DNA of 64,000 bases. It comes from Escherichia coli (GTDB lineage Bacteria > Pseudomonadota > Gammaproteobacteria > Enterobacterales > Enterobacteriaceae). The notes beneath the pieces were generated by a model. That model saw nothing but the letters and a program-made list of their open reading frames with translations, did no database searches and was not told the origin of the DNA. The stretch lies in assembly GCF_003991155.1 (NCBI RefSeq), contig NZ_CP031293.1. One strand, written 5' to 3'. The position numbers and the translations under genes were made by a program. Positions 43,481 through 63,136 of this stretch are shown here, in pieces. Numbering within the stretch: the stretch's first letter is position 1; each line of letters opens with the position of its first letter.

Positions 43481-43496
43481 TGGTGCGATAATAGGA
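43481..43496. repeat. attR-like imperfect direct repeat of the thrW 3' end (TGGTGCGATAATAGGA)
   Basis: Matches the tRNA 3' end at 63061-63077 (TGGTGCCGATAATAGGA) except for a 1-nt deletion; same orientation. Confidence 0.55.
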
Positions 43497-43557
43497 ACAA
43501 TACACATAGGCGATAAGCTTTGTTTTTGTTGCCTTTTTTATTGTTCATTTTTTATAG

Positions 43558-43580
43558 ATACCCCCAAAAGTACCCCCATA
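43558..43580. repeat. island-terminal 23-mer ATACCCCCAAAAGTACCCCCATA (putative arm-type integrase site)
   Basis: 22 of 23 identical to 62927-62949 at the other island end, same orientation. Confidence 0.5.
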
Positions 43581-43697
43581 TCTTTTTCCGCCCCTGAAAT
43601 TTGGTTGTTATTCATACAGCATATCAGGCGGTAACGCTCTCCCTTTAACCCACTTATTGTATGATAGTGCTATCCCACAATAAGGAATCAGCCAGCC

Positions 43698-44057
43698 ATG
43701 AGAATGACCAGTCGCAAAAAAGAGATACTTAGCTACTTTGAACCGGATAACCTCGAATGGGTGACTGGTGAGATTGGTGCGCCGCCGTTCGATGTGTCGG
43801 GTGTGGCCTACCTGCTTCATGGCATGGTGTCGTTCGATAAGCGTCACCAGCTCGAATCAACCCGGCGAACACTGGAAAGCATGGTTGCTGGTGGACTGCT
43901 TGAGCGGGTGACAGTGTATGAATCGCGCCAGATACGGCGCGGCGGTGATACTAACGCAACGGTCGTGCGCTACGGTTTACCCGGTCAGTGCGCTGTTATG
44001 CGCGATACTGGCGGCGCTGACAACGCAATATCAGGTGAATACATGCGGGTCAGTTAA
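43698..44057 (+). CDS. hypothetical protein (119 aa), first island gene at the attR side
   Basis: ORF with AAGGA SD; upstream inverted repeat CTTATTGT..ACAATAAG; 3' end overlaps the convergent gene by 8 bp. Confidence 0.5.
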   Translation: MRMTSRKKEILSYFEPDNLEWVTGEIGAPPFDVSGVAYLLHGMVSFDKRHQLESTRRTLESMVAGGLLERVTVYESRQIRRGGDTNATVVRYGLPGQCAVMRDTGGADNAISGEYMRVS

Positions 44058-44592
44058 TAGCCTGCAATCTGTCGTTGATGCGGCTCAGGTCGTAAACCCG
44101 GCGTTCAATATCCAGCATCAGGAAATTGTGGATCTCGGCCTGCTCAGGATTATCAGACTCTCTGGCCTGTAATAGCAATTCATTGTAACCATGCAAGCCG
44201 CCTGAGTTTTCCGCCGGGGTGGTGCCTTTCCCACGCAGGCAGCTAATGGGCTGATTACTCGTATCGTGTGTTTGCTTCTCCAGCACAATGACGCAATCCC
44301 ACCAGTCGCCAAAGTCATACGTGTAAACCAGCTTGTCACCCTCATTCTGGAGCGCCGCCCATAGTGGCGTGATTGCCGCGTTACCCATGCTTTCATCCTC
44401 ACCCCATACGCGATACTCGCTACCTGGATCACCTTTACGCCCTTTCTCGAACATATACAGGTGTTCGTCATTCCAGCCAAAAGCTAACTGGATCACGGCA
44501 TGAAGTTTACTAAAGGGGATTTGCTCTGGAACCAGCACACGCCGCCATATAGGTGGTTTGCTGTCTCGGATGGTTATCTTTAGCTGGTACAT
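44050..44592 (-). CDS. pRiA4b ORF-3-like family protein (180 aa)
   Basis: N-terminal motif YQLKITIRDSKPPIWRRVLVP as I recall for the PRiA4_ORF3 domain family; function unknown. Confidence 0.6.
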   Translation of the reverse strand: MYQLKITIRDSKPPIWRRVLVPEQIPFSKLHAVIQLAFGWNDEHLYMFEKGRKGDPGSEYRVWGEDESMGNAAITPLWAALQNEGDKLVYTYDFGDWWDCVIVLEKQTHDTSNQPISCLRGKGTTPAENSGGLHGYNELLLQARESDNPEQAEIHNFLMLDIERRVYDLSRINDRLQAIN

Positions 44593-44712
44593 GCAAATCC
44601 TGAATAAATGCGAATCGGAAGGATAACGATACTGACGTACTCACAATTCTGTAAAGGTGAATAAAGGAAATTTGCTTAATACGCATAAGTTACATGTGGA
44701 ATAATCCCATAT

Positions 44713-44898
44713 CTACCTGCGCGGCGCTGGCTTCTTCCACTGGTAGGCAGGTGCTCGCATCATTTCGCGGAACCTGTCGCGCCGGGCTATATCGGCATTA
44801 ACTGATCGTTCTATCTCCCGTTGATCTGCCTGTGTAAGCTGGTGGCCTCCGTGCTCAAGTTTGGCGATGGTCAATAAGGCTATTTCGCGTGGTGTCAT
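44713..44898 (-). CDS. hypothetical small protein (61 aa)
   Basis: ORF with AGAGGG SD-like sequence; no recognisable domain. Confidence 0.35.
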   Translation of the reverse strand: MTPREIALLTIAKLEHGGHQLTQADQREIERSVNADIARRDRFREMMRAPAYQWKKPAPRR

Positions 44899-45123
44899 AC
44901 GTCATACCCTCTGGAAGGATGAAACACGCCCGGATTAAATTTCATTTTTCGCGGGTATAAAAAAACGATGGGGCGGGCAGTCCCGGATAGTCAGGGCTGT
45001 AGAGATTTGACTACCCCCTCCCCACTGGATTCAGGTTACTGCTATTCCGTTAAGCGCTGCTTACGGGGATAGCTGCGTTGTGATTTTGACCATTCAGGTC
45101 GCCGCTATTTCCTCACCGATTGG

Positions 45124-45156
45124 GTGCTACGCGCGCGCGTACTTGTCCCGAAATAC
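45124..45156. repeat. copy 1 of repeat TGCTACGCGCGCGTACTTGTC..AAATA.CAG (contains palindrome ACGCGCGCGT)
   Basis: Near-identical to 46518-46550; related partial copies at 46755-46770 and 46807-46835. Confidence 0.6.
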
Positions 45157-45195
45157 CAGAAACCGCCAGCCAGAGGATGATTTCCCTCTGGTGGT

Positions 45196-45477
45196 CTACC
45201 TTTGCCTCTTGCCGCCATTTAACCGGAAGGCGTTACCGTTCGGTTGCGCTATCCCCATGCGGTGTTGCGTTTCGGTAACAGCTTTATGCAGGTCGCCAAA
45301 TTCCTCAACCTTCACGGGCGGGCGCTTCACGTTCTCCAGACACGTTTCACGGCGGCGCTTTATCCATTCCCGATCATCGTCCTCGGTGCATAACAGCATG
45401 ACTTCCATCCATCGTGCGGCAGCTCTCCGGTATAGCCCTTTTGACTCCAGCTCTTCAGCTTTCCTGTCCCTTATCAT
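45196..45477 (-). CDS. PerC-family transcriptional activator-like protein (93 aa)
   Basis: N-terminal motif MIRDRKAEELESKGLYRRAAARWMEVM resembles PerC/Pch family as I recall it; GAGG SD and TATAAT -10 upstream. Confidence 0.5.
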   Translation of the reverse strand: MIRDRKAEELESKGLYRRAAARWMEVMLLCTEDDDREWIKRRRETCLENVKRPPVKVEEFGDLHKAVTETQHRMGIAQPNGNAFRLNGGKRQR

Positions 45478-45513
45478 TTCTGCCTCTCAGATTATATAGA
45501 TAAGCAAAAAGGT

Positions 45514-45634
45514 GTTGGTTCAGTTGGTTCAGTTGGTTCAATTTGTAAAGATCGTTGTTTTTATTGTGTTTTTTCTGAAATGTTGAACCAACATCAACTC
45601 ATTTTGAACCAACACAGCCCAGCTCTGAACCAAC
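45514..45634. repeat. iteron module A: 3 tandem GTTGGTTCA, AT-rich spacer, 3 copies of the complementary TGAACCAAC
   Basis: Copies at 45514-22, 45523-31, 45532-40 and complementary copies at 45584-92, 45605-13, 45626-34. Confidence 0.7.
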
Positions 45635-45736
45635 AACACAGCGATAGCTTTGTGATTGGTCCGTTATTTTCTGGCTGATATTTGAGCGTATAACAGTGTT
45701 ATACAGTGGTATACTGTATGGATATTACTCACTGAT

Positions 45737-46192
45737 ATGGTCTTTGCAATGAGCAAATCTAATCTGATCGCGTTCCGCATCCCATCTGAATTGCAGGATG
45801 AGTTTAATCGGTCTGTTCTCGCTTCTGGAGGGGATAAAACCTCCTGGCTTGTTGATGCGATTCGCATGAAGCTGGGACAGCCGGAAAAGTCTATTGATTC
45901 ACGAATGCTTGGGCTGGTGGAGCGCATGGAAAAAGCCGCTGCGTCGCTTATTGCCGGAAAGCCGAACATCCCACCAAAGCCATATAACGAAACGGCAGTT
46001 ATAAAGATCATTGCCGATACCATCCAACAGGGATTTGATAATGGGCGTGTGATAGCTGAACGGATCAATGAAGCAGGCTATCAAACAAAAGCTGGTAAAG
46101 CGTGGGATAAAGATATTTACAGCGCGTGGAAGCGTCAGGGAAGCAATGCTGAAAAGTTAAAAGCGGTGATTGATTGTAAGGTCAGCGTATAA
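45737..46192 (+). CDS. putative ribbon-helix-helix (CopG/Arc-like) DNA-binding protein with extended C-terminus (151 aa)
   Basis: N-terminal IAFRIPSELQDEFNRSV...KTSWLVDAIRMKL resembles an RHH beta-strand plus helix; start may be the Met at 45749. Confidence 0.45.
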   Translation: MVFAMSKSNLIAFRIPSELQDEFNRSVLASGGDKTSWLVDAIRMKLGQPEKSIDSRMLGLVERMEKAAASLIAGKPNIPPKPYNETAVIKIIADTIQQGFDNGRVIAERINEAGYQTKAGKAWDKDIYSAWKRQGSNAEKLKAVIDCKVSV

Positions 46193-46271
46193 ACATGAGT
46201 GCCCATTGGAAAGCTGCTTGGGCCAATACCTTTATACACCAGCAGGTGGTGACGATAGGTGAGGATTAGGC

Positions 46272-46493
46272 ATGAAAGGCAGAACGCCACACATTGAACA
46301 TCAAGCCAACCACTTCTCGGATGTTCGCAATGAGATGATTGCCATTCGCGGTGATATGCACGGCTTGGAGCGTCGAATTATTGATAAGATTGATGAAAAT
46401 AGAGATAAGGCCAGTGAAAATCAAAAGTGGATCATCGGCCTGTTGATTTTATCAATTCTTATCCCGCTACTTATCGCATTGGTCACAAAATGA
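46272..46493 (+). CDS. small tail-anchored membrane protein (73 aa)
   Basis: GAGGA SD; charged coiled-coil-like N-terminus and single C-terminal TM helix (WIIGLLILSILIPLLIALV). Confidence 0.5.
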   Translation: MKGRTPHIEHQANHFSDVRNEMIAIRGDMHGLERRIIDKIDENRDKASENQKWIIGLLILSILIPLLIALVTK

Positions 46494-46517
46494 ATATCCA
46501 ATGTGTATGCTGTCGAT

Positions 46518-46550
46518 GCTACGCGCGCGTACTTGTCGCAAAATATCAGG
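46518..46550. repeat. copy 2 of the ACGCGCGCGT-ACTTGTC repeat
   Basis: TGCTACGCGCGCGTACTTGTCGCAAAATATCAG, near-identical to copy 1. Confidence 0.6.
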
Positions 46551-46754
46551 CAAAGGCCAGATTCAGAAATTCGTGATAACCACCAGCACAACATGAGAGG
46601 TCATGTAACGCGATTTATCACACCAGATACATGTGATTGGTGTACCCGCATAAAACATCGTCATAGCGCGTCCTGTGCGCATATACGCCGATAATCAACA
46701 CATCACCACCACTCTGTCTCATGTAGAGAACAGTTTTATGGTACTCCCCTCCAT

Positions 46755-46835
46755 CGTGCGCGTACTGGTCGGACGTAGTTGCAAAATTTTTTGCAACTGA
46801 TACCCCTCGCGCGCGTACTGGTCACGAAATTGGTG
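46755..46835. repeat. copies 3 and 4 (partial) of the GCGCGCGTACTGGTC repeat flanking palindrome GTTGCAAAATTTTTTGCAAC
   Basis: CGTGCGCGTACTGGTC at 46755-46770; CGCGCGCGTACTGGTCACGAAATTGGTG at 46807-46835; 20-bp perfect palindrome at 46777-46796. Confidence 0.5.
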
Positions 46836-47036
46836 TTTTGCTGTGGCAGTGATATCAGAAAAATCTTCCTGTTTCACATAAAGCGGATATGCGCGTAATG
46901 TAACGGCCCCATCAACTGGGAGCGGATTTGAGCCCGAATGTGTAGGCAATGTCACTTAACGTTTGTCGCATACCTTCCAGAAAAAGCGATTCATGAATAA
47001 TAGGGGCATGAATGCCCGGCGTACCGGGCTTATTAG

Positions 47037-47735
47037 TTAATTTGGTGCTTTAGGGTCAACATTAAAAGTTATATCACCTTCTGTATTTTTCCCGGCATAG
47101 CTAGCGGCTATTCTCGCCAACCCTTTGTAATCAGCAATTCCATCAGACTGTTGCGAGACGACTGAGCTACCAACTTTCCATAACATATTAATCTGCCGAT
47201 TATTGAGATAAGCCTTGGCATCAAACGACTGGAGTATCACCCCTGCGCCGTAGAACGTGTCCGTCACAGTTGTGTTATACGCGCCAGTAATTCCATAAGT
47301 AGGCGTATAAACTGTTGTTGCCGTTCCAGTGGTATTAGCTGTACCGTAGCCACCACCATAACTATTGAACGTGGTGTTCGAGTTTCCGTACGTTGTTGCT
47401 GAGCTCACACCAGTTTGCCCGTATATTGGGATGGTTACATTACGAGTATTTGAAATGGCCCCGCTTCTCAAAAAGTTCAAGAGAATTACCTGGTCAGCCA
47501 ATTTTTCATCTTTAACTTGTGTATATCCTTGGCTTGATAAACTGGCGGCTACTACCGTAGCTATTTGAGTGTATTCAATCTGTTTGGTGTTCCAAAGTTC
47601 TTGGCTTGCGGGGATGATCAAGAACTTCTTACCGACAGATTGCCCGGAAGATAAAGCATTGACCGTTACTAACGGTTTTTGTACGCATCCAGCCAATAAT
47701 GACAGGGATAATATTAAAAGAAGATTTTTAATCAT
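47037..47735 (-). CDS. lipoprotein (232 aa) with Gly/Thr/Tyr-rich central region
   Basis: Lipobox LLAGC in signal peptide MIKNLLLILSLSLLAGCVQ; low-complexity middle; tandem hairpins downstream of the stop. Confidence 0.7.
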   Translation of the reverse strand: MIKNLLLILSLSLLAGCVQKPLVTVNALSSGQSVGKKFLIIPASQELWNTKQIEYTQIATVVAASLSSQGYTQVKDEKLADQVILLNFLRSGAISNTRNVTIPIYGQTGVSSATTYGNSNTTFNSYGGGYGTANTTGTATTVYTPTYGITGAYNTTVTDTFYGAGVILQSFDAKAYLNNRQINMLWKVGSSVVSQQSDGIADYKGLARIAASYAGKNTEGDITFNVDPKAPN

Positions 47736-47885
47736 GATAATCTCACCTAAGAATTGCGTGGTTATAAATTATCATCACTGTAAGCGAATGTAAGCCACAG
47801 GCTCGTAATGTGATATGGAATTTTGATAGTTGGCTCAATATCAGTATGCCGTCCTTGGCTATTATGGTTTTGTTAGTTAGAGCGT

Positions 47886-50612
47886 CTATTCCCATTCGCT
47901 AACATCTTTCATGCCACTGAGGGTAGCTACAATCCCGGCCCTTGTCAGTTTCACGAATTCTTCAGCCCCAACGGCATCACGAATTGCTTTCATGGCAATT
48001 TTATTGGCCGAAAATCGTTTCTCTGCTGCGGCGATCGCTGCTGGTGATGCCCCTGCGCGCACTGCTTTTGTAGCTTCCTGAACGGCTTTCTCTATCGCAT
48101 ATCGACCACTTCTTGTCGCCCCAATCTTAGCCACAGCATTTCTTAGCGCGCCACCAGCAACCAAACCACTAATCGAACCAATTACACCACCGCCAAAGCC
48201 TCCAGCGATCGCACCTGACTGTTGAACTCCGTTCATAATCACGCCGACGATCTTTGGAAGGCCTGAATCGAGCGTTTTGAGAGCCTCAGTTGTTCTTCCC
48301 GTGCGCTCTACGTATCGCTGCGGTCTGGTACTGGCTTTAGCGAGTACACCGAACTCTTTCATCATTCTACCGAGATCTGGCGCATGACGACTGATGGCGT
48401 TTACATTCTGCTGGGTCATGAGCTTGGCAAAATACTGGATACCTGACTCTTCACCGATTCCTCCCTTCTCTCCCTGCGCCACAGCATGCTGAAGAATAGA
48501 TGCTATTGCAGGTTGGCGTTCTGCTTCCGGCAGCGCGGAGATAAGACGGTGAAAAGCTCCCGTTCCAGTGTTTGCGGATGCCTTAAGCGTATCGGCACCT
48601 TTTCTTACCATAGCGTCTGATGCGAGATCTCGACCAAAAACAGATTCGGCATTTTGTTTGGCGATAATGTAACTTTTAGAGAGATCGTTAGCTTTCTGCC
48701 ATTCTGTGAGGAAGTTTCCTTTTTCAGCCATGATGCGCATGTCATCAGTGATAGCTCTGCGCATTTCTCCGGCAATCCGGGCGGCATTGGCCTTACCTGC
48801 CCGGGTGTTTGCTTGTTCAGCATCAGCAAACTTAGCACGCCATGCCTTCATCCCGTCGAAGGTTATGCCGCCACCTTGGTTGTTGGCAGCCTGAAACTGT
48901 TTCATCTCCGGGCTGAGTGGAACATTGGCTGCTTTTTCTGCTTGGACGACAGCCATCCCATTACTCATTTTCATCCTTTCGCGTGGCATCGTGCTTCGCA
49001 GTTCTGCCCATGCCATATTCTCTGCTGTTTTCATATCACTGAGGCTCGCGATGATGCGCTCTTTAATTGCTGCGCTTTTTTCTGATGCGCTTCCAGACTC
49101 AGCACCGAAATCAGACAACTGCTTATTCAACTTTGAGGATATTTCATTGAAGGCCGTAAGGTGAGCATCCTGAACATTCCCAGGAGTTGATGCCAGAACA
49201 CCTTCTGCTTGGGCAATTCCACGACTACCTGAGCGCATTCCAGGCGTCAGGGTGTTGATATTAATACCAGTGATTTTCGCCGCCTTAGCGACATCATCTC
49301 TGACGTTTGATGCCTGCGATGCGATATGCTCTCGGCCTACGGCAGAACGCGCTGCTTTCGATACATCATTGGCGGTTTCCAGAGTATTTGCTGCCCCTAA
49401 CACATGGCCTGATTGATTTGTATTACTCCGCAATACATCTCGCATTACGTCACTGGCTGTCTGTCCGCTCTTTATTAAAGCGCGTGCTCCTAGCGATCCT
49501 GCTAGGCCAATACCTGTCTCTTTTGCTAGGTCTTCTGGGCTGATCTGCCCGTTCTTTTGGGCGTTCACCAATGTACCTGGCAGGTTTTCTGCCAACATAC
49601 TAGCCACCTTTGTGGCCGCACGTTCAGCACGTGGAGCGTTGGCAACTGAAGAAGCTGCGGTAGCTGCCTTTCCTGCACCTAATCCTGTAATAAGGTAAGG
49701 TGCTAGCTGCTCACCAGCCTGCGCGTATGGATCTGTAGGTTGGTCTACTGGGCGAAAGACAGGTGATATGGGCGTGTATGTGCCATCACCCACACCAAGC
49801 TTCTGAGCTGCCCATGCTCCGGCTGATTGCGCCGCATTGACTACCCCCACGCCTGCGTCCATTACATCAAACGGTATATTAGCAATCCCTCTGGCCATCT
49901 GCTCTGGCGCAGCTTTCAGTCCTGGCGAAAGATATTCCATCTCAGGATTAAGGTTAGACTTGGCTACTTGCTGCTGCGGTTCCCCGGCATTTTCATCGGC
50001 GAGAAACTGAGCTCTTTTCTGCTCCCATGAACTGGCTGTTGGTAGTCCTGCTTCTATGTTCTTAAATTGCTGACGTTTTGCTTCCCATGCAGAAATATCT
50101 CCCACCTGAGAGATTTCTTTATCAAGCTCTGAGTAGTCAGGCTGCTGAAGATTGCGATGTTGACTGGTTTGTGCAAACTGCAAGATTTCACTGTCATCAG
50201 GGATTATTCCGGCATCTGCAAATTTACTTACGTAATTAGCCGTTTCATCTGGCAGTGTAGATTTACCGTTTCTGACGGCATTAATACGAGCATAGCCAGA
50301 ATTATACCCAGCCAATGCCATACCTATATCACCAAATCGCTTCATTCCTTTATTGAGATGGTTTGCTGCGATATCCATTTGCTTTTCAAATGGCAGTGAG
50401 CGCGGATCTGTTCCACGATAACCAGCATCACTCATTACTGAGGGCATCAGTTGAGCAAATCCTCTAGCTCCTTTCGGTGACTCGGCACTTCCGTTACCAC
50501 TAGATTCATTGCCAACTAATGTTTCCATCGTCCCTGATGGGAAACCATATTTTTCATCGAGATGACGGGAATAGGCTTTCTGTTTTTCTGTCAGTTGTGC
50601 CATCATTGCCAT
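47886..50612 (-). CDS. large protein (908 aa) with N-terminal lytic transglycosylase (SLT) domain and long alpha-helical Ala/Lys-rich body
   Basis: SLT motifs near N-terminus (GNESSGN...ESPKGARGFAQLMP...ALAGYNSGYARI); start overlaps upstream gene stop. Confidence 0.8.
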   Translation of the reverse strand: MAMMAQLTEKQKAYSRHLDEKYGFPSGTMETLVGNESSGNGSAESPKGARGFAQLMPSVMSDAGYRGTDPRSLPFEKQMDIAANHLNKGMKRFGDIGMALAGYNSGYARINAVRNGKSTLPDETANYVSKFADAGIIPDDSEILQFAQTSQHRNLQQPDYSELDKEISQVGDISAWEAKRQQFKNIEAGLPTASSWEQKRAQFLADENAGEPQQQVAKSNLNPEMEYLSPGLKAAPEQMARGIANIPFDVMDAGVGVVNAAQSAGAWAAQKLGVGDGTYTPISPVFRPVDQPTDPYAQAGEQLAPYLITGLGAGKAATAASSVANAPRAERAATKVASMLAENLPGTLVNAQKNGQISPEDLAKETGIGLAGSLGARALIKSGQTASDVMRDVLRSNTNQSGHVLGAANTLETANDVSKAARSAVGREHIASQASNVRDDVAKAAKITGININTLTPGMRSGSRGIAQAEGVLASTPGNVQDAHLTAFNEISSKLNKQLSDFGAESGSASEKSAAIKERIIASLSDMKTAENMAWAELRSTMPRERMKMSNGMAVVQAEKAANVPLSPEMKQFQAANNQGGGITFDGMKAWRAKFADAEQANTRAGKANAARIAGEMRRAITDDMRIMAEKGNFLTEWQKANDLSKSYIIAKQNAESVFGRDLASDAMVRKGADTLKASANTGTGAFHRLISALPEAERQPAIASILQHAVAQGEKGGIGEESGIQYFAKLMTQQNVNAISRHAPDLGRMMKEFGVLAKASTRPQRYVERTGRTTEALKTLDSGLPKIVGVIMNGVQQSGAIAGGFGGGVIGSISGLVAGGALRNAVAKIGATRSGRYAIEKAVQEATKAVRAGASPAAIAAAEKRFSANKIAMKAIRDAVGAEEFVKLTRAGIVATLSGMKDVSEWE

Positions 50613-51922: not shown

Positions 51923-52599
51923 TAGAATCCAAGCCCCCCAACAAGACCAATAAGCCCACCACCAATAGCGCCGGCCGCAGTTCCTATTCCAGGAACAACG
52001 GAACCAAGTTGCGCACCCGCTAAAGCGCCTGATGCTGCCCCACCAATACCACGCGCAAGACTGGATGGCTGCTGCGCCTGACCTGCACGAATAGCGCCAA
52101 GCCCCTGCAAGAGTTGTCCGGTATTATTGGCGTAGTTTTGCCCTGCCGTTGCCTGCCCTGATGCCGCATTCATCCCGACATTTAGCAGGTTTCCATAATT
52201 TTGCATTTGCCCACTAAGCCAATTGTTATAAAGCATGGGCGCAATGGAAGATAACTGGTTACTGGTAGCTGTTGAGCCAAGCCCCCCGGTAGCTTCTGCT
52301 GAGACAAGGTTCTGATAACGGGCCTGATCTGCCTGTGTTTTATATAAACCAGAACCAAAGAAATCATTCGCGGCTTTATTCTGCCCTTCCAGAGTCATCA
52401 GTCCTTGCAGTTGTTGTAAAGCAGGCAATCCGACTTCTGCATACGGCTTGAGATTATTCATCACCGTATTCCACTGCTCGCGCTGCAAATCAATTGCCTG
52501 CTGCTGGGCCTTCGCCTGAGCTTTAGAGGCACCACCATCACCGCCTTTTTCGTATACGGCACGATTGAGATGTTTATGAGCTATATGGGTAATTAACAT
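51922..52599 (-). CDS. Gly-rich protein (225 aa) with C-terminal Gly/Ala hydrophobic tail
   Basis: C-terminus GIGGAASGALAGAQLGSVVPGIGTAAGAIGGGLIGLVGGLGF; coupled to neighbours. Confidence 0.65.
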   Translation of the reverse strand: MLITHIAHKHLNRAVYEKGGDGGASKAQAKAQQQAIDLQREQWNTVMNNLKPYAEVGLPALQQLQGLMTLEGQNKAANDFFGSGLYKTQADQARYQNLVSAEATGGLGSTATSNQLSSIAPMLYNNWLSGQMQNYGNLLNVGMNAASGQATAGQNYANNTGQLLQGLGAIRAGQAQQPSSLARGIGGAASGALAGAQLGSVVPGIGTAAGAIGGGLIGLVGGLGF

Positions 52600-53054: not shown

Positions 53055-53070
53055 GCGATGCCATCCATTT

Positions 53071-53232: not shown

Positions 53233-53248
53233 AACGCCCCCCTTAGAA

Positions 53249-53681: not shown

Positions 53682-53792
53682 GTCGGTTCAAAATACCGTG
53701 TTGTTGGTTCAGTGTTGGTTCAATAAAAAGAATAAAATCCTTATAAAACAATACACTTTACAAATTGAACCAACTGAACCAACTGAACCAAC
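53682..53792. repeat. iteron module B: inverted, diverged copy of module A
   Basis: GTCGGTTCA 53682-90, GTTGGTTCA 53704-12 and 53714-22, then tandem TGAACCAAC at 53766-74, 53775-83, 53784-92; spacer begins with reverse complement of the module A spacer (ATTTGTAAAG). Confidence 0.7.
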
Positions 53793-53817
53793 ACCTTTTC
53801 TACGCACATGAAGAAGC

Positions 53818-56577: not shown

Positions 56578-56932
56578 CGTACCCCACGTGGTCTATAGCG
56601 TTTGCGATATGGCTAACCAGCATCTGCCACTTGGTTATTCCGTAATCAGTCAGCATGCCATCATTGTTTAGCCACATATCAAATTCAGCGGTTGTCGCAA
56701 GTTTCCACTTATCGCCGTGGACAGTCCTCATTGCTGGGTACATGAATGCGCAAATCAGATCACAAACATCTGACGGCTTCAGAGATGTAGTAATGGTGCG
56801 TCCCTCTGGCGTCTGAATTGCCATTTTCTCTTCACCAGTAGAATGAAGGTTATGAATCCACACAGCACCAGCAATCTTTGCCACCTGCTCTCCGATTGCG
56901 GAGCTAAGCGCCATTTCTGCATTTTCACGCAT
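56561..56932 (-). CDS. hypothetical protein (123 aa), overlaps primase start
   Basis: ORF in coupled chain; 3' end overlaps primase start by 17 nt. Confidence 0.55.
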   Translation of the reverse strand: MRENAEMALSSAIGEQVAKIAGAVWIHNLHSTGEEKMAIQTPEGRTITTSLKPSDVCDLICAFMYPAMRTVHGDKWKLATTAEFDMWLNNDGMLTDYGITKWQMLVSHIANAIDHVGYGDAKH

Positions 56933-57266
56933 GAGAACCTCCCGCTACAGTTGCGCCCATGTCATTAACCATGCTTTGCCATATCTCACGCCCGACGTCA
57001 GTCAATCCGTCCTTAGTGACGCAACGTTCAAGAAGCTCGATCCCCACGGTTTCCCACTGCGGGTAGAACACTTTCATGGCTGCCAGTGTGTAGCTATCGA
57101 TCAGGCTGCGAACGCCTTTTACTCCATTGACGATTTCCACACGGACGGCCTCGCCGTCCGCATCAACCATGAAATAGTCCCCGCCGCTGGTGGAGGTAAT
57201 GTGGTTATACAGTGCCGACGCATACTTATTTGCCAGCGCATTCAGTCGGAAATTTTTAGTAATCAT
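56925..57266 (-). CDS. hypothetical protein (113 aa)
   Basis: ORF in coupled chain; 8-nt overlap with downstream gene. Confidence 0.55.
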   Translation of the reverse strand: MITKNFRLNALANKYASALYNHITSTSGGDYFMVDADGEAVRVEIVNGVKGVRSLIDSYTLAAMKVFYPQWETVGIELLERCVTKDGLTDVGREIWQSMVNDMGATVAGGSHA

Positions 57267-57276
57267 GGCTCCATCC

Positions 57277-57879
57277 TCAGTGCGTCACTGGTTCCGCTGG
57301 CATGCCGTTTTCATTCAGTTCAGCTATAAAGCTGTTGTGAAGTTCAGCAAGCGTTTCACGCCCAAATGGAGTCAGTGCTCCTTGTTCCACATCCATCATG
57401 GCTCTGTAGAAAATAATGGCGCGTTCTGTGCCAGACTCGATGCCAAAACGTTCTATCATCGCGCCCTCAATGTTGTTTGCCATAGCGAGGCGCTCTGCTA
57501 CTGGATACAGCGGCATGGCGACGATGCCGTTGGAATAAACAGCCACTTCGGAAGGATTGCCAGTATCATCAATGATGCTGACAGTGCCGTTTTCCTCTCT
57601 CATTTCCAGCATGAATACTGTTGCGATCAGCCATCTCCACATAATGACGTTATGCTGTGATGTGTAATCGAAATATCCCTGGTTACCGCCATCGGCAATA
57701 GCGAGATGTATTGACATACCTTCATCTGGTTTATCGTCATAATCCCCGGCATCCAGACGATTTACGGCATCAATATATGAGATGGCCTCAACGCGTTCTG
57801 TCATGCCATCGTTGCTGCGGTACATGATGTTTACGCCGTCAGGCGTTGCTTCTGCATGGAAAGTTAAGAAATTATTCAT
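57277..57879 (-). CDS. hypothetical protein (200 aa)
   Basis: ORF 57277-57984; start placed at MNNFLTFHAEA where ATG overlaps upstream stop (CATGAATAA). Confidence 0.55.
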   Translation of the reverse strand: MNNFLTFHAEATPDGVNIMYRSNDGMTERVEAISYIDAVNRLDAGDYDDKPDEGMSIHLAIADGGNQGYFDYTSQHNVIMWRWLIATVFMLEMREENGTVSIIDDTGNPSEVAVYSNGIVAMPLYPVAERLAMANNIEGAMIERFGIESGTERAIIFYRAMMDVEQGALTPFGRETLAELHNSFIAELNENGMPAEPVTH

Positions 57880-58093
57880 GTTTCGCCTCGCCTGAATGAT
57901 TCTGTAACTCATATTTGCCCAACAATTCGTCCGCTTCCTGAATAGCTTCTGGTACGCCATTGAGCAGTGACATAACCGCGCCAATCATTAACTTGTCTCT
58001 GTTGCTGGGGCTGGCCCCTTCAAGCCAGAACCCTAAAACAGTCTGAACCTGTTCGATGCGACATTGCGCTTCAATGAGCTGGATGTTGGTCAT
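57872..58093 (-). CDS. hypothetical small protein (73 aa)
   Basis: Start overlaps upstream stop (ATGA). Confidence 0.5.
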   Translation of the reverse strand: MTNIQLIEAQCRIEQVQTVLGFWLEGASPSNRDKLMIGAVMSLLNGVPEAIQEADELLGKYELQNHSGEAKHE

Positions 58094-58353
58094 TTCGCAC
58101 TCTCCACATCGATTAAACCGATATCTATCAGGGAGGTAACTTTTTGTAGCCAGCTATTGATTACTGTCGCCTGTTCCCCTCCCACCGAGGGAACAATCTC
58201 ATTCATCACATGAACCAGACCTGTGCGCGCTCTGGTAAGCCGTTCAGTCGCGCAATCTGCGGGAGTGAATGTGTCTGGATATGGCTCTTCACGCCCCAGC
58301 AATGATTCAATTTCCAGCTCACACGGATGACGATAAATTAAGTTGATATTCAT
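58090..58353 (-). CDS. hypothetical small protein (87 aa)
   Basis: Start overlaps upstream stop (ATGA). Confidence 0.5.
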   Translation of the reverse strand: MNINLIYRHPCELEIESLLGREEPYPDTFTPADCATERLTRARTGLVHVMNEIVPSVGGEQATVINSWLQKVTSLIDIGLIDVESAK

Positions 58354-58544
58354 TTTTCACCCCCAAGAATTACCAGCTCGGCACGGGCATCGTTAACCAA
58401 AGATGAGCACGCTTTAATCGCATCCACGACATCAGCAGCGTCCATTTCTTCAGCCGAAAGACTGACAGCAACCAGGACAGCCGCTGCTTGCTCGATTAAT
58501 TGAAGTGCGGACGTAAGTCGAGGGGCATTAATTGAGTTATTCAT
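58350..58544 (-). CDS. hypothetical small acidic protein (64 aa)
   Basis: ORF 58350-58601; start placed at [10 protein letters not shown] with G-rich SD; overlaps upstream stop by 8 nt. Confidence 0.5.
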   Translation of the reverse strand: MNNSINAPRLTSALQLIEQAAAVLVAVSLSAEEMDAADVVDAIKACSSLVNDARAELVILGGEK

Positions 58545-58755
58545 TGGTTGCCCCCGTTTTTCCTGGCATTTCGCCACCTTCCAGCAGGAAATGAACGTCA
58601 CGAACGGCGAGATCCAATATCGCGAGTAACGCCTTCAGTCTTTCGTCTCGTGAGGGAGAGTTGCTCACCAGAATGTCGTTAATCACTTCTGTCAGTGTGA
58701 TGATCTGGCTTGTGCGTTCGAGGGGATCCATATGCACATCGTAGGTTTTAATCAT
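58537..58755 (-). CDS. hypothetical small protein (72 aa)
   Basis: Start MIKTYDV preceded by GGAGG (6-nt spacer); ATG overlaps stop of the 58748-58942 ORF; in frame with the long 58537-59604 ORF. Confidence 0.5.
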   Translation of the reverse strand: MIKTYDVHMDPLERTSQIITLTEVINDILVSNSPSRDERLKALLAILDLAVRDVHFLLEGGEMPGKTGATNE

Positions 58756-59604
58756 GAGCCACCTCCATGCGGATACGACCAGCAAAAAAGCAGACGTGAT
58801 CGCGCACCAGAGAACGGCGAGCATCGCGTTCAGACTCGGCAGCAATATGATGAATTTTGGCGGTAATTGTCGAGCAATCGCGGCGAACTGCGGCGATAAT
58901 CCAGATAAATTGCGGTTTTTGGGTAGGGGTAGTAGCCAGCATGTGGCAGCCTCCATTCGATAGCATGTAACGCTACCACCGGAAACGCCAATTTCGCTGG
59001 TGGTAGCCCAGACAGGGTTGGCGTAACCGGCTCGAATGGATACCGGCGCTTCCGAAGAAGCCCCTGCCTGAGCCACCATTGATTGACAAAGGCGCTGGAT
59101 TATACACCAACGCCCAAAAAATGGGTGAGTCAGACCTACGACATAAAAAAAGACGCTCGGCGCGTCATATGTCGCCATTCGATTTACTAGGACGCCAATC
59201 CCGGCACCCGTTTTATGAGGTGCCTTATAACCATAAACCGTGTTGCCGCATAACGGCAAGCTCTTTTTTATGGACTCCGAAAACTCGCTATTGGAAGCAC
59301 CAGATGCACAGTACATCGCGCTCATTTCGTTAACGTCACGCGCGTGGACGAATGTTTTTGTGGAGTCACTACACGAGCGGAAGACATCATCTACGACCAG
59401 AAATTTTCTGGCGCAGCCGCTGACCTTCTCAATGCTAATATCATCGCCCGAGATTTCTGATATGGTTAAGGCATCCGTTCCGACCACCAGCAAATGATAA
59501 ACTTTGCTTGTATCTGCTGTATTAATGCCTGACTTTGCCGTCATATTGCTGGATTTTGGCGACATACCAGCCAGTGAAAATGTCTTCTTCTGGACGGTTA
59601 GCAT
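58537..59604 (-). CDS. long open frame (355 aa) from a GGAGG-preceded ATG at 59604; likely real only in its N-terminal about 210 aa, possibly frameshifted
   Basis: No in-frame stop until 58537 although two SD-preceded small genes lie inside or overlapping it; the middle of the translation is low-complexity. Confidence 0.3.
58748..58942 (-). CDS. hypothetical small protein (64 aa)
   Basis: Start MLATTPTQ preceded by GGAGG (7-nt spacer); alternative frame relative to the long ORF. Confidence 0.45.
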   Translation of the reverse strand: MLATTPTQKPQFIWIIAAVRRDCSTITAKIHHIAAESERDARRSLVRDHVCFFAGRIRMEVAHD

Positions 59605-59780
59605 TTGTTAACCTCCGCGAACTCCTTCATGAAACGCGCCAGCGGTTGTACGCATGGCGATTGATACCCGTCGCGATAAAACGTCACTCGGTTGTGAGAC
59701 ACGCTTTCGACAGTAACGAGTGCTCCGTGGGCATCTTTGTAGCGTTTTTGTGGTTGTGGTGTTCCTGTTGGCTTAGACAT
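59598..59780 (-). CDS. hypothetical small protein (60 aa)
   Basis: ORF 59598-59867; start placed at MSKPTGTPQ with GGAGG SD; overlaps antirepressor-like gene end and next gene start. Confidence 0.5.
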   Translation of the reverse strand: MSKPTGTPQPQKRYKDAHGALVTVESVSHNRVTFYRDGYQSPCVQPLARFMKEFAEVNKC

Positions 59781-60606
59781 TGACCACCTCCAGACGCTTG
59801 GCGAGCCAGCGTTGCGACAGGCGGGTGAGTTCTCCTTTGCGCTGCTCATATTCCATGCCCATATCAATTAACGTGATATTGGTGCTTTCGAGATATGAGA
59901 GGTGCTCAAGCTGTTCTGCGTTCATATGGTCGCGAGGTTCGCCAGAATAGCCATTTATCCGCGCCCACTGCTTAGCAGTTAGCCCACCAAGAACGATACG
60001 AGAAATCATATTGCTCTCGTTTGTGTAGTGGTGTTGCTGCGTCGTTTTACCCATCTCGGCACGGGCCATATTCAGCGCATCGCACATTGGCTTAAAGTTG
60101 TTTGCGGCACTGAGACGGGCTTTTAGCTGGCGACGATAGCGGGCGGCGATTTCAGGCACGCTACGCTGTAATTCTTCCTCGCACTGGATGAAATAACGGC
60201 GGATAGCGCGACCCTGATCATTGCGTTCGATCATTGCCAGTTCTTTCGCCATTCCGACACTTAACAGATAGTCTTTGCCGGGTCTGCCAGAGTGCTTTAT
60301 CTTGCTGTAAGCCGCGCCATTCGGGCTTTTCCCCAAATTTGGGGAAATTGTTTTATGGACTGAGTAATCGTGCCCAATGGTGAAGTCATATTCAGAGATG
60401 CGATCAGTGATCCATGTAGAGAAGTCTTTTCCCACGCCCAACGCTTTGTGTAACGCTTTTGCGCTAACAATATTGGTTTCACGCCCACCGATATGACCAG
60501 GAATAACCGGGACAATTGCGGCAAATTCATTACCGTTAATTGTGCTCAGAGAGGCGTTCAGATGAGGGGCGGCCTCAGAAATTAATCTGCTTTTTTCGAT
60601 GTTCAT
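59773..60606 (-). CDS. phage antirepressor-like protein (Rha/Ant-type N-terminus with KilA-C-like domain)
   Basis: 277 aa; KilAC-like motif DYLLSVGMAKELAMIERNDQGRAIRRYFIQCEEEL; GGAGA SD. Confidence 0.65.
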   Translation of the reverse strand: MNIEKSRLISEAAPHLNASLSTINGNEFAAIVPVIPGHIGGRETNIVSAKALHKALGVGKDFSTWITDRISEYDFTIGHDYSVHKTISPNLGKSPNGAAYSKIKHSGRPGKDYLLSVGMAKELAMIERNDQGRAIRRYFIQCEEELQRSVPEIAARYRRQLKARLSAANNFKPMCDALNMARAEMGKTTQQHHYTNESNMISRIVLGGLTAKQWARINGYSGEPRDHMNAEQLEHLSYLESTNITLIDMGMEYEQRKGELTRLSQRWLAKRLEVVNV

Positions 60607-60618
60607 TTTCAGTCTCCG

Positions 60619-61050
60619 TTAGGCGGCGTTAAACGCGTCCGGGTAGAGTTTCAGAATGTCGGCAATTTCCTGCTGAGAAAGTCCGTTGTGATCATTTATG
60701 TTCGCAAGATGGTTAATATGAGTGATCACTTTCAGAACATCACCACGGCAGGAGAAACGGTAGCGAAGGTGTGTTCCGATACCATCAGGATTCTTTTCGT
60801 CGATACGCTCCAGAGTGATTCCAAGCTGGCGTTCTAACTCTGTTGCATAGTTACGACCAGAAGACAGACGGCAGTAGCGAAGAATGTCATTTTCTGTCCA
60901 TCCCTCTATACCAGTACGCAGCATATAGACTCTGGCACGATGCTTTTTCGGTGTGCGCTTTGGTGCTTGAAGGGATTTTGTAAGGGGCGTAACATCAGAT
61001 ACACGAATATCTGAATTAGCCGCCTGTAATGGGCGGTTTTTCTTTTCCAT
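60619..61050 (-). CDS. hypothetical protein (143 aa) translationally coupled to alpA
   Basis: ATG overlaps alpA stop (TGATG); GAGGT SD. Confidence 0.55.
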   Translation of the reverse strand: MEKKNRPLQAANSDIRVSDVTPLTKSLQAPKRTPKKHRARVYMLRTGIEGWTENDILRYCRLSSGRNYATELERQLGITLERIDEKNPDGIGTHLRYRFSCRGDVLKVITHINHLANINDHNGLSQQEIADILKLYPDAFNAA

Positions 61051-61253
61051 CAGGCCACCTCGTCTCTAGATTCTAATATACACTTCTCAATCCATTCATC
61101 TATTTCAGACTCAACAAAAGCAATTGCCCGACTTCCAATTTTTACCTGTTTAGGGAACCTCCCCTGACTAATAAGACGATAAATCCATGCTTTGCTATAA
61201 CCAGTTCGCCTTTGAACTTCAGAGAGACGAATTAATGAATTGTAATTAGCCAT
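61050..61253 (-). CDS. alpA: AlpA-family phage regulatory protein / excisionase-like (67 aa)
   Basis: MANYNSLIRLSEVQRRTGYSKAWIYRLISQGRFPKQVKIGSRAIAFVESEIDEWI: typical AlpA/MerR-like HTH. Confidence 0.8.
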   Translation of the reverse strand: MANYNSLIRLSEVQRRTGYSKAWIYRLISQGRFPKQVKIGSRAIAFVESEIDEWIEKCILESRDEVA

Positions 61254-61680
61254 TTATTAATATCCTGTACTAATGACGCAATAACCCCCTCCTGCAACGA
61301 ATGGCGAGAGTTTTATTTGCGTCAAATGTCGAATACGCCAAAGACCACAATATGAAAAACATATTGCGGTCTTTTATAAAAGATAGTCAGATTGTTTTGG
61401 TTTGTTTGCTCCACAAGGGTAGAGCTACCCTGCATTTCGGCAGGATCACGCTATTAGGCGTGACATCCAGTAGTTTTAAAGAACAATTGCGCTTTGTCAG
61501 CGCCAAAGCCTGTTAAAGAACATTCCGCTTTTCAGCAGCGTAGAAGGCTCAATACACCTTCGTTTATAAAAGAGCGATTGCCCTTCTCCAGGGCTAACTG
61601 TTAAATAGCAATCCTCTGTGAGTTTTTATCAATCTACTCCCCTATACTTTAGTAAACCTCTGTATACTTGTCCAGTTGTT

Positions 61681-62895
61681 TCATGCGTGTTTTTCAAACA
61701 CCATATGCACCACATTTCCGCCATGCTCGAGAGAATCCATATAGTCGGCATACCATTGAAGCATCTCCCGCCGTCCATCCAGATATTGCGCATGGTTGTA
61801 TGTGCCACGAATTGAGTTCTTATCAACGTGAGCGAGCTGCGTTTCTATCCACGCGGTGTTATAGCCCTGCTCATGCAAAATCGTGCTCATAGTGTGTCGG
61901 AACCCATGACCAGTTACACGTCCAGCGTAGCCAATGCGCTTAAACACTTGGTTTATGCTGGCCTCACTCATTGTTTTCCTTGGATCATTGCGCCCGGGAA
62001 ACATAAGAGGGTAATTGCCTGTTATTTCTCTAATCTTCCCAATAAGCGAAAGAGCCTGCTCAGACAATGGCACAATATGAGGCCGCCGCATTTTCATACG
62101 TGAAGCGGGTATCTCCCATATAGCCTTGTTGAAATCAATTTCATCCCATAATGCGCCACGTAGTTCGCCAGTTCGCAAGCCGGTGATAATCAGTAGACGA
62201 GCCGCCATAACAACCAATGCGCTTCCTGAGTAACTGGACAATGCCTTGAAAAAATCAGGTAATTCTTTGGTCGTAAGGAAAGGGTAATGATTAGATTCAT
62301 GGCCTTGCATCGCGCTAGTAAGGTCTGGTGCAGGGTTATACTCTGCGCGACCAGTGACTATTGCATAGCGGAAAACTTCCCCGCACCGCTGCCTCACTTT
62401 TTTGGCTTTTTCTGTCGCACCGCGCCCCTCGATGCGCCGCAGCACATTCAGAAGTTCAAGTGGTTTGATTTCGGCGATTGGTTTTTTGCCAATGTAAGGG
62501 AACACATCTTTGTTGAAGGCTTCGAGGATGTCTGAAGCATAACCAGCAGACCATTTTTTTAATTTGCTGCTGTGCCACTCAAGGGCAATATCTTTGAAGG
62601 TGTTGTTTAACTGCGTTTCCCGGGCAATCTTTTCCTCTCGTTTCGCTTCCATCGGATCGATACCACCAGCGATACCTCTTTTCGCATCTTCACGTTTTGC
62701 CCGAGCATCGGCTAGAGTAACCTCAGGATACACACCTAGTGCCAATAGCTTCTCTTTACCAGCTACACGATATTTAAGTCGCCAGTATTTACCTCCATTA
62801 GGTTTTACCAAGAGATACAAACCGCCACCATCGGCCAGCTTGTAAGCCTTCTCTTTTGGCTTGGCTGTGTCTATTTGACGGGCATTGAGTTTCAC
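61681..62895 (-). CDS. int: P4-type tyrosine integrase
   Basis: 404 aa; N-terminal P4-integrase arm-binding signature (GLYLLVKPNGGKYWRLKYR) and C-terminal catalytic region (HGFRHTMST...RGTYNHAQY); 165 bp from tRNA 3' end. Confidence 0.95.
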   Translation of the reverse strand: MKLNARQIDTAKPKEKAYKLADGGGLYLLVKPNGGKYWRLKYRVAGKEKLLALGVYPEVTLADARAKREDAKRGIAGGIDPMEAKREEKIARETQLNNTFKDIALEWHSSKLKKWSAGYASDILEAFNKDVFPYIGKKPIAEIKPLELLNVLRRIEGRGATEKAKKVRQRCGEVFRYAIVTGRAEYNPAPDLTSAMQGHESNHYPFLTTKELPDFFKALSSYSGSALVVMAARLLIITGLRTGELRGALWDEIDFNKAIWEIPASRMKMRRPHIVPLSEQALSLIGKIREITGNYPLMFPGRNDPRKTMSEASINQVFKRIGYAGRVTGHGFRHTMSTILHEQGYNTAWIETQLAHVDKNSIRGTYNHAQYLDGRREMLQWYADYMDSLEHGGNVVHMVFEKHA

Positions 62896-62926
62896 TTGGG
62901 GGTACCTCCACTAAACCGAACAGCAA

Positions 62927-62949
62927 ATACCCCCATAAGTACCCCCATC
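62927..62949. repeat. island-terminal 23-mer ATACCCCCATAAGTACCCCCATC (putative arm-type site), partner of 43558-43580
   Basis: 22 of 23 identity with the distal copy, same orientation. Confidence 0.5.
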
Positions 62950-62967
62950 TGACCGTAGATTTTGAGG

Positions 62968-63043
62968 GACTTTAGTAGACGTCAAAAGACGAACGGGGCT
63001 TTAATACGCGGATTATAAGGGGTTTTGAAAGACTTTAGTAGAC
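62968..63043. repeat. two direct copies of GACTTTAGTAGAC between int and thrW
   Basis: Copies at 62968-62980 and 63031-63043, each preceded by TTTGAR. Confidence 0.45.
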
Positions 63044-63060
63044 TTGGGGAGATGTTTGAA

Positions 63061-63136
63061 TGGTGCCGATAATAGGAGTCGAACCTACGACCTTCGCATT
63101 ACGAATGCGCTGCTCTACCAACTGAGCTATATCGGC
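63061..63136 (-). tRNA. thrW: tRNA-Thr (anticodon CGU)
   Basis: Reverse complement is GCCGATATAGCTCAGTTGGTAGAGCAGCGCATTCGTAATGCGAAGGTCGTAGGTTCGACTCCTATTATCGGCACCA: 7-bp acceptor stem, D, anticodon and T arms fold; anticodon CGT; encoded CCA. Confidence 0.95.

Follow-up and report, generated by a model that had tools for sequence, protein, structure and literature searches.

A 19.6-kb island at thrW of Escherichia coli, very probably a variant of the phage satellite EcCIMP1, with a P22-type ejection-protein gene block and a candidate packaging-site mimic

What kind of element occupies the 19.6 kb (43497-63060) between the tRNA gene thrW and the yagU/ykgJ side of the Escherichia coli contig NZ_CP031293.1, and by what means could it be packaged and delivered? 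The stretch of this contig that was analysed, 64,000 nucleotides (nt) long, is called the window below, and positions are counted from its first letter. The original prediction, drawn from the letters of the window, described an integrative island resembling phage-inducible chromosomal islands (PICIs) and P4-type satellites. That nature is supported here through identity with EcCIMP1; the accompanying view that the element was undescribed was wrong, as EcCIMP1 has been published as a satellite and validated by experiment (Pick, Stadel & Raivio, ISME J 2025, PMC11773190; GenBank OR778291). The thrW island is very probably a variant of EcCIMP1, that is, a phage satellite of the PICI kind with P22-like podoviruses as helpers, and the element as a whole is already known.

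EcCIMP1 is a 19,963-bp island inserted in thrW, extending from proA to yagU, in the mouse commensal E. coli MP1, where its authors first classed the region as an incomplete prophage (PMC11773190). Excision and circularisation were confined to lysogens of the P22-like phage Kapi1, and mitomycin C raised circularisation; excision needs the element's own int and alpA, and alpA is needed for transfer too (PMC11773190). A marked copy was transduced in helper particles, a chromosomal marker was not, and transfer by Kapi1 was low, at about 5e3 particles per ml (PMC11773190). EcCIMP1 adds to superinfection immunity, the authors having found no known defence system; Kapi1 titres on induction were unchanged by it and Kapi1 infection of non-lysogens was unaffected (PMC11773190). 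The PerC-family gene of the MP1 copy, EcCIMP1_025, represses LEE1 (PMC11773190). The authors reported no structural genes and suggested that cargo open reading frames (ORFs) might contribute to packaging, the mechanism of which they did not settle (PMC11773190). In a published scoring scheme, EcCIMP1 counts as a 'Type C' PICI, with no recognised packaging module.

Homology to EcCIMP1 of MP1 starts at 43476. In the alignment, positions 43476-45614 and 46513-64000 of the window are 98.9% and 98.2% identical to MP1, respectively, amounting to 98-99% identity over about 95% of the element length. The two copies have in common the thrW site, the core of the attachment (att) site and the gene order, as well as int, alpA, antirepressor, primase, ejection cassette, lipoprotein, PerC and pRiA4b genes. 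They differ in 0.9 kb at 45615-46512, which stands here in place of a 1.26-kb alpA_1 segment of MP1, in the C4/isrK RNA region (about 32% diverged) and in a terS-like fragment (15% diverged); the EcCIMP1 paper itself lists variants without single genes (PMC11773190). The second AlpA-family gene alpA_1, which in MP1 supports helper excision, is absent from the window, two unrelated ORFs being found instead. This absence and an immunity allele other than that of MP1 count against a simple equation of the two copies, and the behaviour of the window island may differ from that of the tested element. Helper-dependent mobility has been shown for the MP1 copy with Kapi1, whereas the window allele is known from sequence.

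Prevalence was estimated by megablast against 5426 complete E. coli genomes, with coverage of at least 80%. The element was found in 48 of them (about 1%), conserved at 98-99.9% identity, and every inspected copy adjoins thrW-proA, while the distal neighbour varies (paoD, a vat island or yagU). The locus thus behaves as the strain-variable hotspot that had been anticipated.

The island ends are defined by the following features:

63061-63136, minus strand: tRNA-Thr(CGU) gene thrW (ARAGORN; Rfam tRNA, 71.8 bits)
43481-43496, minus strand: distal att repeat, TCCTATTATCG-CACCA, one base shorter than the tRNA copy (from the sequence)
62927-62948: tRNA-side copy of a sub-terminal 22-nt repeat with a GGGGGTA doublet (direct-repeat family D16)
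43558-43579: distal copy of the sub-terminal 22-nt repeat (direct-repeat family D16)

The tRNA-Thr gene, with anticodon CGT in the DNA, is the single tRNA gene that ARAGORN found in the 64-kb window. Its 3' end (63077-63061), TCCTATTATCGGCACCA, serves as the proximal att repeat (63061-63077), and the distal copy, TCCTATTATCGCACCA at 43496-43481, has one G fewer; the imperfect repeat of the earlier reading was correctly placed. Both agree with the published EcCIMP1 core, TCCTATTATC, whose direct repeats were Sanger-verified (PMC11773190). Past the att repeats, the next six bases match at 5/6 (TTTAAA on the distal side, TTCAAA on the tRNA side). Just inside both island ends lie copies, 95% identical, of the repeat ATACCCCCA(A/T)AAGTACCCCCAT, which are probably arm-type recombination sites bound by Int/AlpA. 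The tRNA-side flank is proA, and the predicted distal neighbours yagU and ykgJ were recovered by 94% alignment to the annotated MP1 region. The window island directly adjoins the yagU side, without a vat/MarR island. In MP1 (L005, 8210-8718) and NC101 (L002, 3505-4000) a second fragment was observed beyond the distal att site, consisting of an integrase N-terminus and a tRNA 3'-end copy 86% identical to that of the island; this second fragment marks a tandem vat/MarR island that is absent from the window.

The backbone consists of the following genes:

61681-62895, minus strand: P4-type tyrosine integrase of 404 amino acids (aa) (Pfam Arm-DNA-bind_3, Phage_int_M and Phage_integrase; phrog_1)
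61050-61253, minus strand: AlpA-family regulator/excisionase, 67 aa (phrog_66, phrog_2790)
60619-61050: 143-aa ORF upstream of the antirepressor
59773-60606, minus strand: AntA/AntB-family antirepressor, 277 aa (phrog_5817, expectation value (E) 2e-37; RefSeq annotation)
59598-59780, minus strand: DUF4222 small protein, 60 aa (RefSeq annotation; phrog_285)
56561-58544, minus strand: chain of six small overlapping ORFs (ORF list; PHROGs of unknown function only)
53818-56577, minus strand: primase-helicase, 919 aa (Pfam Zn_Ribbon_Prim, Toprim_3 and DUF927; phrog_1139, E 2e-178)

Integrase, alpA, overlapping-ORF chain and primase-helicase all lie on the minus strand, as do nearly all long ORFs between the att copies, and ARAGORN, the ORFs and Pfam bear out the order originally read from the tRNA gene to the primase. 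As in PICIs, the integrase stands at one end beside a specific att site and is followed by a co-directional alpA; the island has its own primase, with iterons beside the gene that would act as the origin; and it is well under phage size, with no capsid, tail or lysis genes, although four genes linked to the virion interior are present, encoding a homologue of gene product 14 (gp14) and three ejection proteins. No recognised packaging module (terS, rpp, ppi or cpm) was found in the island by PHROG and NCBIfam searches, and the 143-aa ORF had no NCBIfam match. The AlpA accession, WP_000035054.1, is identical to that annotated in MP1. The integrase was also seen to be 47% identical to that of the P22-like phage Louie (L004), and a similar resemblance to the Kapi1 integrase was noted for EcCIMP1 (PMC11773190); in view of these resemblances, satellite and helper may share integrase ancestry.

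The cargo beyond the primase had been set apart from that of described E. coli PICIs. By its sequence it copies a gene block of the helper itself, that of the ejection proteins, and in that sense is not foreign to the satellite:

53249-53272, minus strand: promoter of the ejection operon, a TATAAT -10 followed by a LexA-box-like CTGT-N8-ACAG
53071-53232, minus strand: 53-aa first ORF of the operon, 45-100% identical in most related islands, whatever cargo follows
52593-53054, minus strand: P22 gp14 homologue (DUF2824), 153 aa (phrog_651, head morphogenesis, E 1e-66; 84% identical to Kapi1_055)
51922-52599, minus strand: P22 gp7-type ejection protein, 225 aa (phrog_598, DNA ejection, E 3e-70; 58% identical to Kapi1_056)
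50603-51922, minus strand: P22 gp20-type ejection protein, 439 aa (phrog_917 and phrog_2534, released upon infection)
47886-50612, minus strand: gp16-type ejection protein with an N-terminal SLT lytic-transglycosylase domain, 908 aa (phrog_770, DNA transfer protein, E 5e-121)

The cassette DNA matches the gene block 14-7-20-16 of P22-like phages, and the same four genes occur in the same order in Kapi1, Louie, Dewey, CUS-3 and HK620, the block coming after the needle gene in Kapi1 and Louie. PHROG matches of the cassette range from E 1e-45 to 1e-121; the ejection proteins gave no NCBIfam match, and a PDB-chain sequence search with gp7, gp20 and gp16 returned nothing useful. The island gp20 is 26% identical to Kapi1_057 and 33% to its Louie homologue, while gp16 is 51% identical to that of Louie and 25% to Kapi1_058. 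The SLT domain noticed at the outset was recovered by Pfam at residues 17-119 of gp16 (E 3.8e-12), and the full-length SLT-gp16 fusion is present in phages Dewey and Huey too. In the phages the block belongs to the late operon, whereas here it lies on a satellite, without capsid or tail genes, behind a small ORF and a LexA-box promoter. The word "ejection" is absent from the EcCIMP1 paper (PMC11773190).

The cassette forms a separate transcription unit, in which a terminator (53337-53352) is followed by TATAAT, CTGTTGTTTTATACAG, a Shine-Dalgarno sequence and the 53-aa ORF. SOS control of this operon is likely but unproven. The argument rests on the position and conservation of the LexA box rather than on its count: the box, CTGTATAAAACAACAG at 53249-53264, overlaps the promoter, is present in all EcCIMP1-like loci, and recurs at the same position with different spacers in the diverged islands L034, L042 and L044. 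Two points tell against it, namely that CTGT-N8-ACAG occurs once in 64 kb where 0.55 occurrences are expected by chance, a count at chance level, and that most diverged relatives are without a perfect box. The SOS box of the original prediction is therefore real as a sequence and not significant by count. A scan for the sigma-70 consensus found fewer sites than in shuffled sequence and was not informative. Operon I of Staphylococcus aureus pathogenicity islands (SaPIs) is, to go by a cited title, reportedly controlled by LexA, and the likeness would be that of a virion-related satellite operon that answers directly to the SOS response; the genes differ, those of SaPI operon I being terS and genes for capsid-size proteins, and the LexA site of the island operon is predicted.

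During the SOS response that induces the helper, the operon would thus yield the 53-aa protein and the gp14, gp7, gp20 and gp16 homologues, and the ejection proteins would load into helper procapsids as a conduit for DNA injection, the island being predicted to supply its own injection proteins. In P22, changes in gp16 and gp20 allow escape from SieA exclusion; the two proteins have to match each other, foreign sets can be built into P22 virions, and a single foreign gp16 or gp20 gives non-infectious particles (Leavitt et al., PMC10461980). The matched-pair finding fits the observation that related islands carry other alleles or, in two E. coli islands whose integrase or primase is of another kind, only a gp20+gp16 pair, again as other alleles. 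Because SieA escape maps to gp16 and gp20, it is plausible that the conduit cargo lets satellite DNA enter helper lysogens in spite of their superinfection exclusion. Set against the conduit role is the fact that Kapi1 titres are unaffected by EcCIMP1, so that entry of the island ejection proteins into virions, or any change made to virions by them, is a prediction only.

Two sequences bear on how the island might be packaged, the question left open for EcCIMP1, to which the ejection set is likewise relevant:

59350-59456, plus strand: 107-nt fragment of a P22-type small-terminase gene (gene 3), 'site B', homologous to nt 268-374 of the gene
46847-46868, minus strand: second short sequence resembling the core of the packaging site pac, GAAGATTTTTCTGATATCACTG, 'site A' (weaker evidence)

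In a megablast of the backbone against phage genomes, the 107-nt fragment was 92% identical to terS of CurroJimenez, Dewey, Louie, IME10 and other phages, and it is 86% identical to P22 gene 3. The record of phage g341c annotates pac at nt 268-289 of gene 3, quoting the P22 pac sequence, and a 12-bp pac core is confirmed in PMC11226127; homology of the fragment therefore starts at the first base of pac. It sits between the DUF4222 gene and isrK and belongs to no long ORF in the gp3 frame, and read from the island's early-operon transcript it is antisense to helper terS mRNA. Fragment and flanks occur in 413 of the 5426 complete genomes, MP1 included. The fragment is hypervariable (16/107 mismatches to MP1), and its alleles track terS polymorphisms, the window allele being closest to CurroJimenez, that of MP1 to APC_JM3.2/P22 and that of island L011 to P22/As3. 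On these grounds the 107-nt fragment is a candidate pac mimic. Site A is kept in all ejection-protein-bearing EcCIMP1-like loci. Among islands without the 107-nt fragment, L028, L044 and L052 have in this slot, in opposite orientation, some 28 nt that resemble the pac core, and L043 has two pac cores 31 nt apart near its distal end, with a third, weaker copy upstream.

Several observations weigh against a working pac mimic. Divergence within the fragment is greatest in the 22-nt pac core, with 6/22 mismatches to the nearest phage allele against 3/85 downstream, and at two positions the core departs from the pseudo-pac regular expression published for P22. Nor does that expression lend significance to site A, as at one mismatch it gave 5 matches where 4.3 are expected; being non-discriminating at that setting, it was dropped as support for site A. 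A degenerate pac pattern found exactly two sites against 0.11 expected, yet it was built partly from those sites, is circular and counts little. Kapi1, the only proven helper, has another small terminase (142 aa), to which the fragment shows no similarity, and a comparison of its small-terminase gene and neighbourhood with the island revealed no similarity outside gp14 and gp7. Given this difference, the pac mimic cannot explain the observed transfer by Kapi1; the terminase mismatch may, in turn, explain why EcCIMP1 is transduced poorly.

With helpers that carry P22-type terS, packaging would start at the captured fragment, and the second short core may serve too. Headful packaging would then take about two island copies, 2 x 19.6 kb being close to one helper genome: the island (19.6 kb; 19.96 kb in MP1) is very nearly half the length of a helper genome (38-42 kb; 38.0-39.4 kb for P22-like E. 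coli phages), which fits dimer packaging by the headful mechanism and the absence of capsid-size genes. The prediction that follows is that efficient help comes from P22-like phages whose terminase is of the P22 type (Louie, IME10 or CurroJimenez type), and not from Kapi1.

Next to the terminase fragment lies an RNA region:

59146-59223, minus strand: isrK-family RNA (Rfam RF01394, 60.5 bits; gathering threshold 50)
58996-59083, minus strand: C4-family antisense RNA, of the P1/P7/P4 immunity type (Rfam RF01695, 79.5 bits; gathering threshold 45)
58748-58966, minus strand: Icd-like protein, 72 aa (NCBIfam NF033153, 69.3 bits; cut-off 25)

By analogy with P1 and P4, the island would be silenced by C4/isrK antisense-RNA immunity. 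The C4 and isrK pair recurs in MP1, L011, L044 and L020 (Rfam). Over 250 nt (58950-59200) the window has 80 mismatches to MP1 (L005), the flanks being about 1% apart, and both RNAs are above the Rfam thresholds in window and MP1 despite the roughly 32% divergence. A region this variable within a backbone about 99% identical is what would be expected of an immunity determinant; the divergence suggests distinct immunity types, and the C4/isrK region, the most variable part of the backbone, probably makes the window copy heteroimmune to that of MP1.

The Icd-like ORF overlaps an annotated 355-aa 'ash family' ORF (58537-59604, minus strand), which was rejected as a real gene: it is a pseudogene in near-identical copies, its family-matching part sits over the isrK and C4 RNA genes, and it also runs over the terS-like fragment. 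Apart from the Icd-like ORF, it is probably an annotation artefact. Two repeated motifs were also observed. AGTTTT(C/T)(G/A)GAGTCCATAAAAAA lies just upstream of isrK (59264-59285) and again upstream of the LexA-box promoter (53388-53409), and CAGTACGCGCG has four copies in the distal island (45136, 46526, 46759 and 46812, minus strand) and adjoins pac-like cores in related islands; both could be targets of antisense RNAs. The Rfam int-alpA RNA (RF02996, 46 bits) was seen in the diverged relative L044 at 1276-1344, and had no match in the window at E 0.1.

For replication, two sites come into question:

53698-53799: iteron cluster just 3' of the primase gene, TGAACCAAC x3 plus dispersed copies (tandem repeats)
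45507-45640: second iteron cluster, GTTGGTTCA x3, inverted, 8.2 kb from the first (putative function)

The first cluster is the probable replication origin, and the primase-helicase would act on it and on the inverted cluster 8.2 kb away. A 55-nt inverted repeat, 93% complementary, links the two sites (partner at 45507-45561), which bracket the cargo in an arrangement that recalls ori/crr of P4.

Can these features be accounted for otherwise? Four genes and one gene fragment are clearly P22-like in origin, and incomplete prophage was the first class given to the region by the MP1 authors; the island might accordingly be a decayed P22-like prophage, immobile, with the ejection genes and the terminase fragment as leftovers. 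This is extremely unlikely. Capsid, portal, large-terminase, tail and lysis genes are missing among the ORFs searched against PHROGs, and where a P22 prophage would have portal, scaffold, coat, terminase and tailspike genes, only the gp14/7/20/16 homologues and the 107-nt terS fragment are present. The backbone genes (int, alpA, C4/isrK, primase) are those of a satellite. None of the four ejection genes is disrupted, and many islands have them, in several allelic forms; 98-99.9% identity is kept in the 48 genomes, and the near-identical MP1 copy excises and is transduced. The caution in the original prediction that the region might turn out to be a well-annotated element with capsid genes nearby is answered in halves, as the element is published and no capsid genes were found. 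Membership of the P4 family, with a P2-like myovirus as helper, capsid control of the psu/delta/sid type and a P2-type cos, is very unlikely, although integrase type, alpA, C4-family RNA, Icd-like gene and Zn-ribbon/Toprim primase are of the P4 kind and the paired iterons recall ori/crr. No psu, delta or sid homologue was matched by PHROG or NCBIfam in any ORF tested, a P2/P4 cos query gave no match at up to 3 mismatches, and the helicase part is DUF927 rather than the P4 alpha type; the structural and packaging signatures are P22-like and the proven helper is a podovirus.

A more serious alternative, though still an unlikely one, concerns the role of the cassette and the terminase fragment, both of which might act against phages: mismatched gp20 and gp16 would poison the ejectosome, and the fragment would pair with terS mRNA or titrate TerS. 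The primase-side slot is a known accessory and immune region in PICIs, the island gp20 and gp16 share no more than 25-26% identity with their Kapi1 counterparts, and one foreign gp16 or gp20 is enough to make P22 particles non-infectious (PMC10461980). The fragment, moreover, is antisense to terS in the island transcript and adjoins the antisense-RNA immunity region, and EcCIMP1 adds to superinfection immunity (PMC11773190). Against poisoning, Kapi1 titres on induction were not lowered and infection of non-lysogens was unaffected (PMC11773190); no PADLOC model matched; and other islands hold only the pac core of about 28 nt in sense orientation, which fits recognition at the DNA level and not antisense pairing. 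The reading of the island as an EcCIMP1 variant with P22-like helpers is thus preferred, with conduit and pac-mimic roles proposed for these parts.

Compared with known satellites, this EcCIMP1 variant has several features of the Gram-negative PICIs EcCICFT073 and EcCIEDL933 (Fillol-Salom et al. 2018, 2019): its genes run in the order int-alpA-primase, one accessory gene is PerC-like, induction depends on a helper (in the MP1 copy), and the helper packaging site is copied on the island (here a candidate); the two helper-like cos sites of EcCICFT073 are a precedent for a pac mimic. The Gram-negative PICIs use cos siphoviruses as helpers, whereas the island helper is a pac/headful podovirus, and Rpp, TerS and capsid-size genes were not found here, ejection-protein genes being present instead. 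With satellite P4 it has in common the integrase type, alpA, C4/CI-type RNA immunity (C4-family RNA at 79.5 bits, predicted function), an Icd-like gene, a Zn-ribbon/Toprim primase and two separated iteron clusters; it differs in its helper type, and neither homologues of psu, delta or sid nor a P2-type cos were found in it. The terS fragment, the isrK/C4 RNAs, the paired iterons and the TraT-like lipoprotein described below are unreported in the EcCIMP1 paper. Together with the ejectosome cassette and the LexA box, the pac fragment, RNA immunity, paired iterons and TraT-like lipoprotein are put forward as new hypotheses.

The island primase was also used to scan IMG/VR, yielding 80 islands (L013-L092) at 52-100% identity, and cargo was classed where the small 53-aa ORF was present. 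P22-type ejection proteins were found at 8 loci, a 903-aa tape-measure protein (phrog_1107/1538, E 1e-174) at about 17, and a 566-aa SLT protein resembling a tape measure at 8, accompanied by a baseplate-hub homologue and in some cases by a small terminase; the remaining loci hold unknown genes. In L020 (11451-14162) and L052 (12092-16096), other virion-interior or tail genes were seen in the primase-side slot after the conserved small ORF. The literature searched, whose coverage was incomplete, held no report of ejection-protein or tape-measure genes on such islands. It is possible, though on balance doubtful, that the island belongs to a wider satellite lineage that captures pac from the helper terS gene and carries conduit proteins in a conserved primase-side slot. 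If the slot pattern holds, satellites that provide the proteins for their own DNA delivery would add a new theme to satellite-helper relations, one tied to superinfection exclusion.

Between the ejection cassette and the distal att site lie further genes:

47037-47735, minus strand: lipoprotein (lipobox LAGC), DUF4136 family, 232 aa, next after the gp16 gene
45615-46512, plus strand: variable cassette with a 151-aa ORF (45737-46192) and a 73-aa membrane-anchored ORF (46272-46493)
45196-45477, minus strand: PerC/ANR-family regulator, 93 aa (phrog_994, E 1e-37; NCBIfam ANR, 31.1 bits, cut-off 32; RefSeq annotation)
44713-44898, minus strand: 61-aa ORF, distal accessory (RefSeq annotation of identical copies)
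44050-44592, minus strand: pRiA4b ORF-3 family protein (RefSeq annotation of identical copies)
43698-44057, plus strand: 119-aa ORF, distal accessory (RefSeq annotation of identical copies)

The lipoprotein of the original prediction is confirmed by its lipobox; it has no NCBIfam match, and distant relatives carry a DUF4136 domain. Its AlphaFold2 model (predicted local distance difference test, pLDDT, 84) consists of an alpha/beta domain and a very long beta-hairpin, and Foldseek matched it to TraT (9fsm_A; E 7.5e-4, probability 0.98, template modelling (TM) score 0.27) and also to the DUF4136 structure 4f54, LptE and PelC. Its place after gene 16 is the position of sieA in P22. Model and position make the TraT-like lipoprotein a weak to moderate candidate for the published superinfection immunity or exclusion of EcCIMP1; the low TM-score and a Pfam TraT match that is not significant (E 0.13) tell against it.

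The PerC-like gene stood up to scrutiny, with PHROG matches, an NCBIfam ANR match just below threshold and RefSeq annotation, and its accession, WP_000617443.1, is identical to that annotated in MP1. For the pRiA4-like gene, the RefSeq annotation agrees with the earlier reading, whereas PHROG and NCBIfam family searches gave no matches. The distal accessory genes (43698-44898) had no PADLOC or PHROG function, and PADLOC gave no matches for the ten cargo proteins tested.

Both ORFs of the variable cassette are annotated likewise in STEC383, and a palindromic repeat (45688-45714) lies upstream of them. By eye only, the N-terminus of the 151-aa ORF may have a ribbon-helix-helix fold; the 73-aa ORF has a C-terminal membrane helix (phrog_6324). 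In the related islands L009, L010 and L012 the same area holds genes with Abi or Panacea domains. Outside the island, between ykgJ and yagU, an Rfam IS009 RNA was detected at 42067-42268 on the minus strand (191.7 bits).

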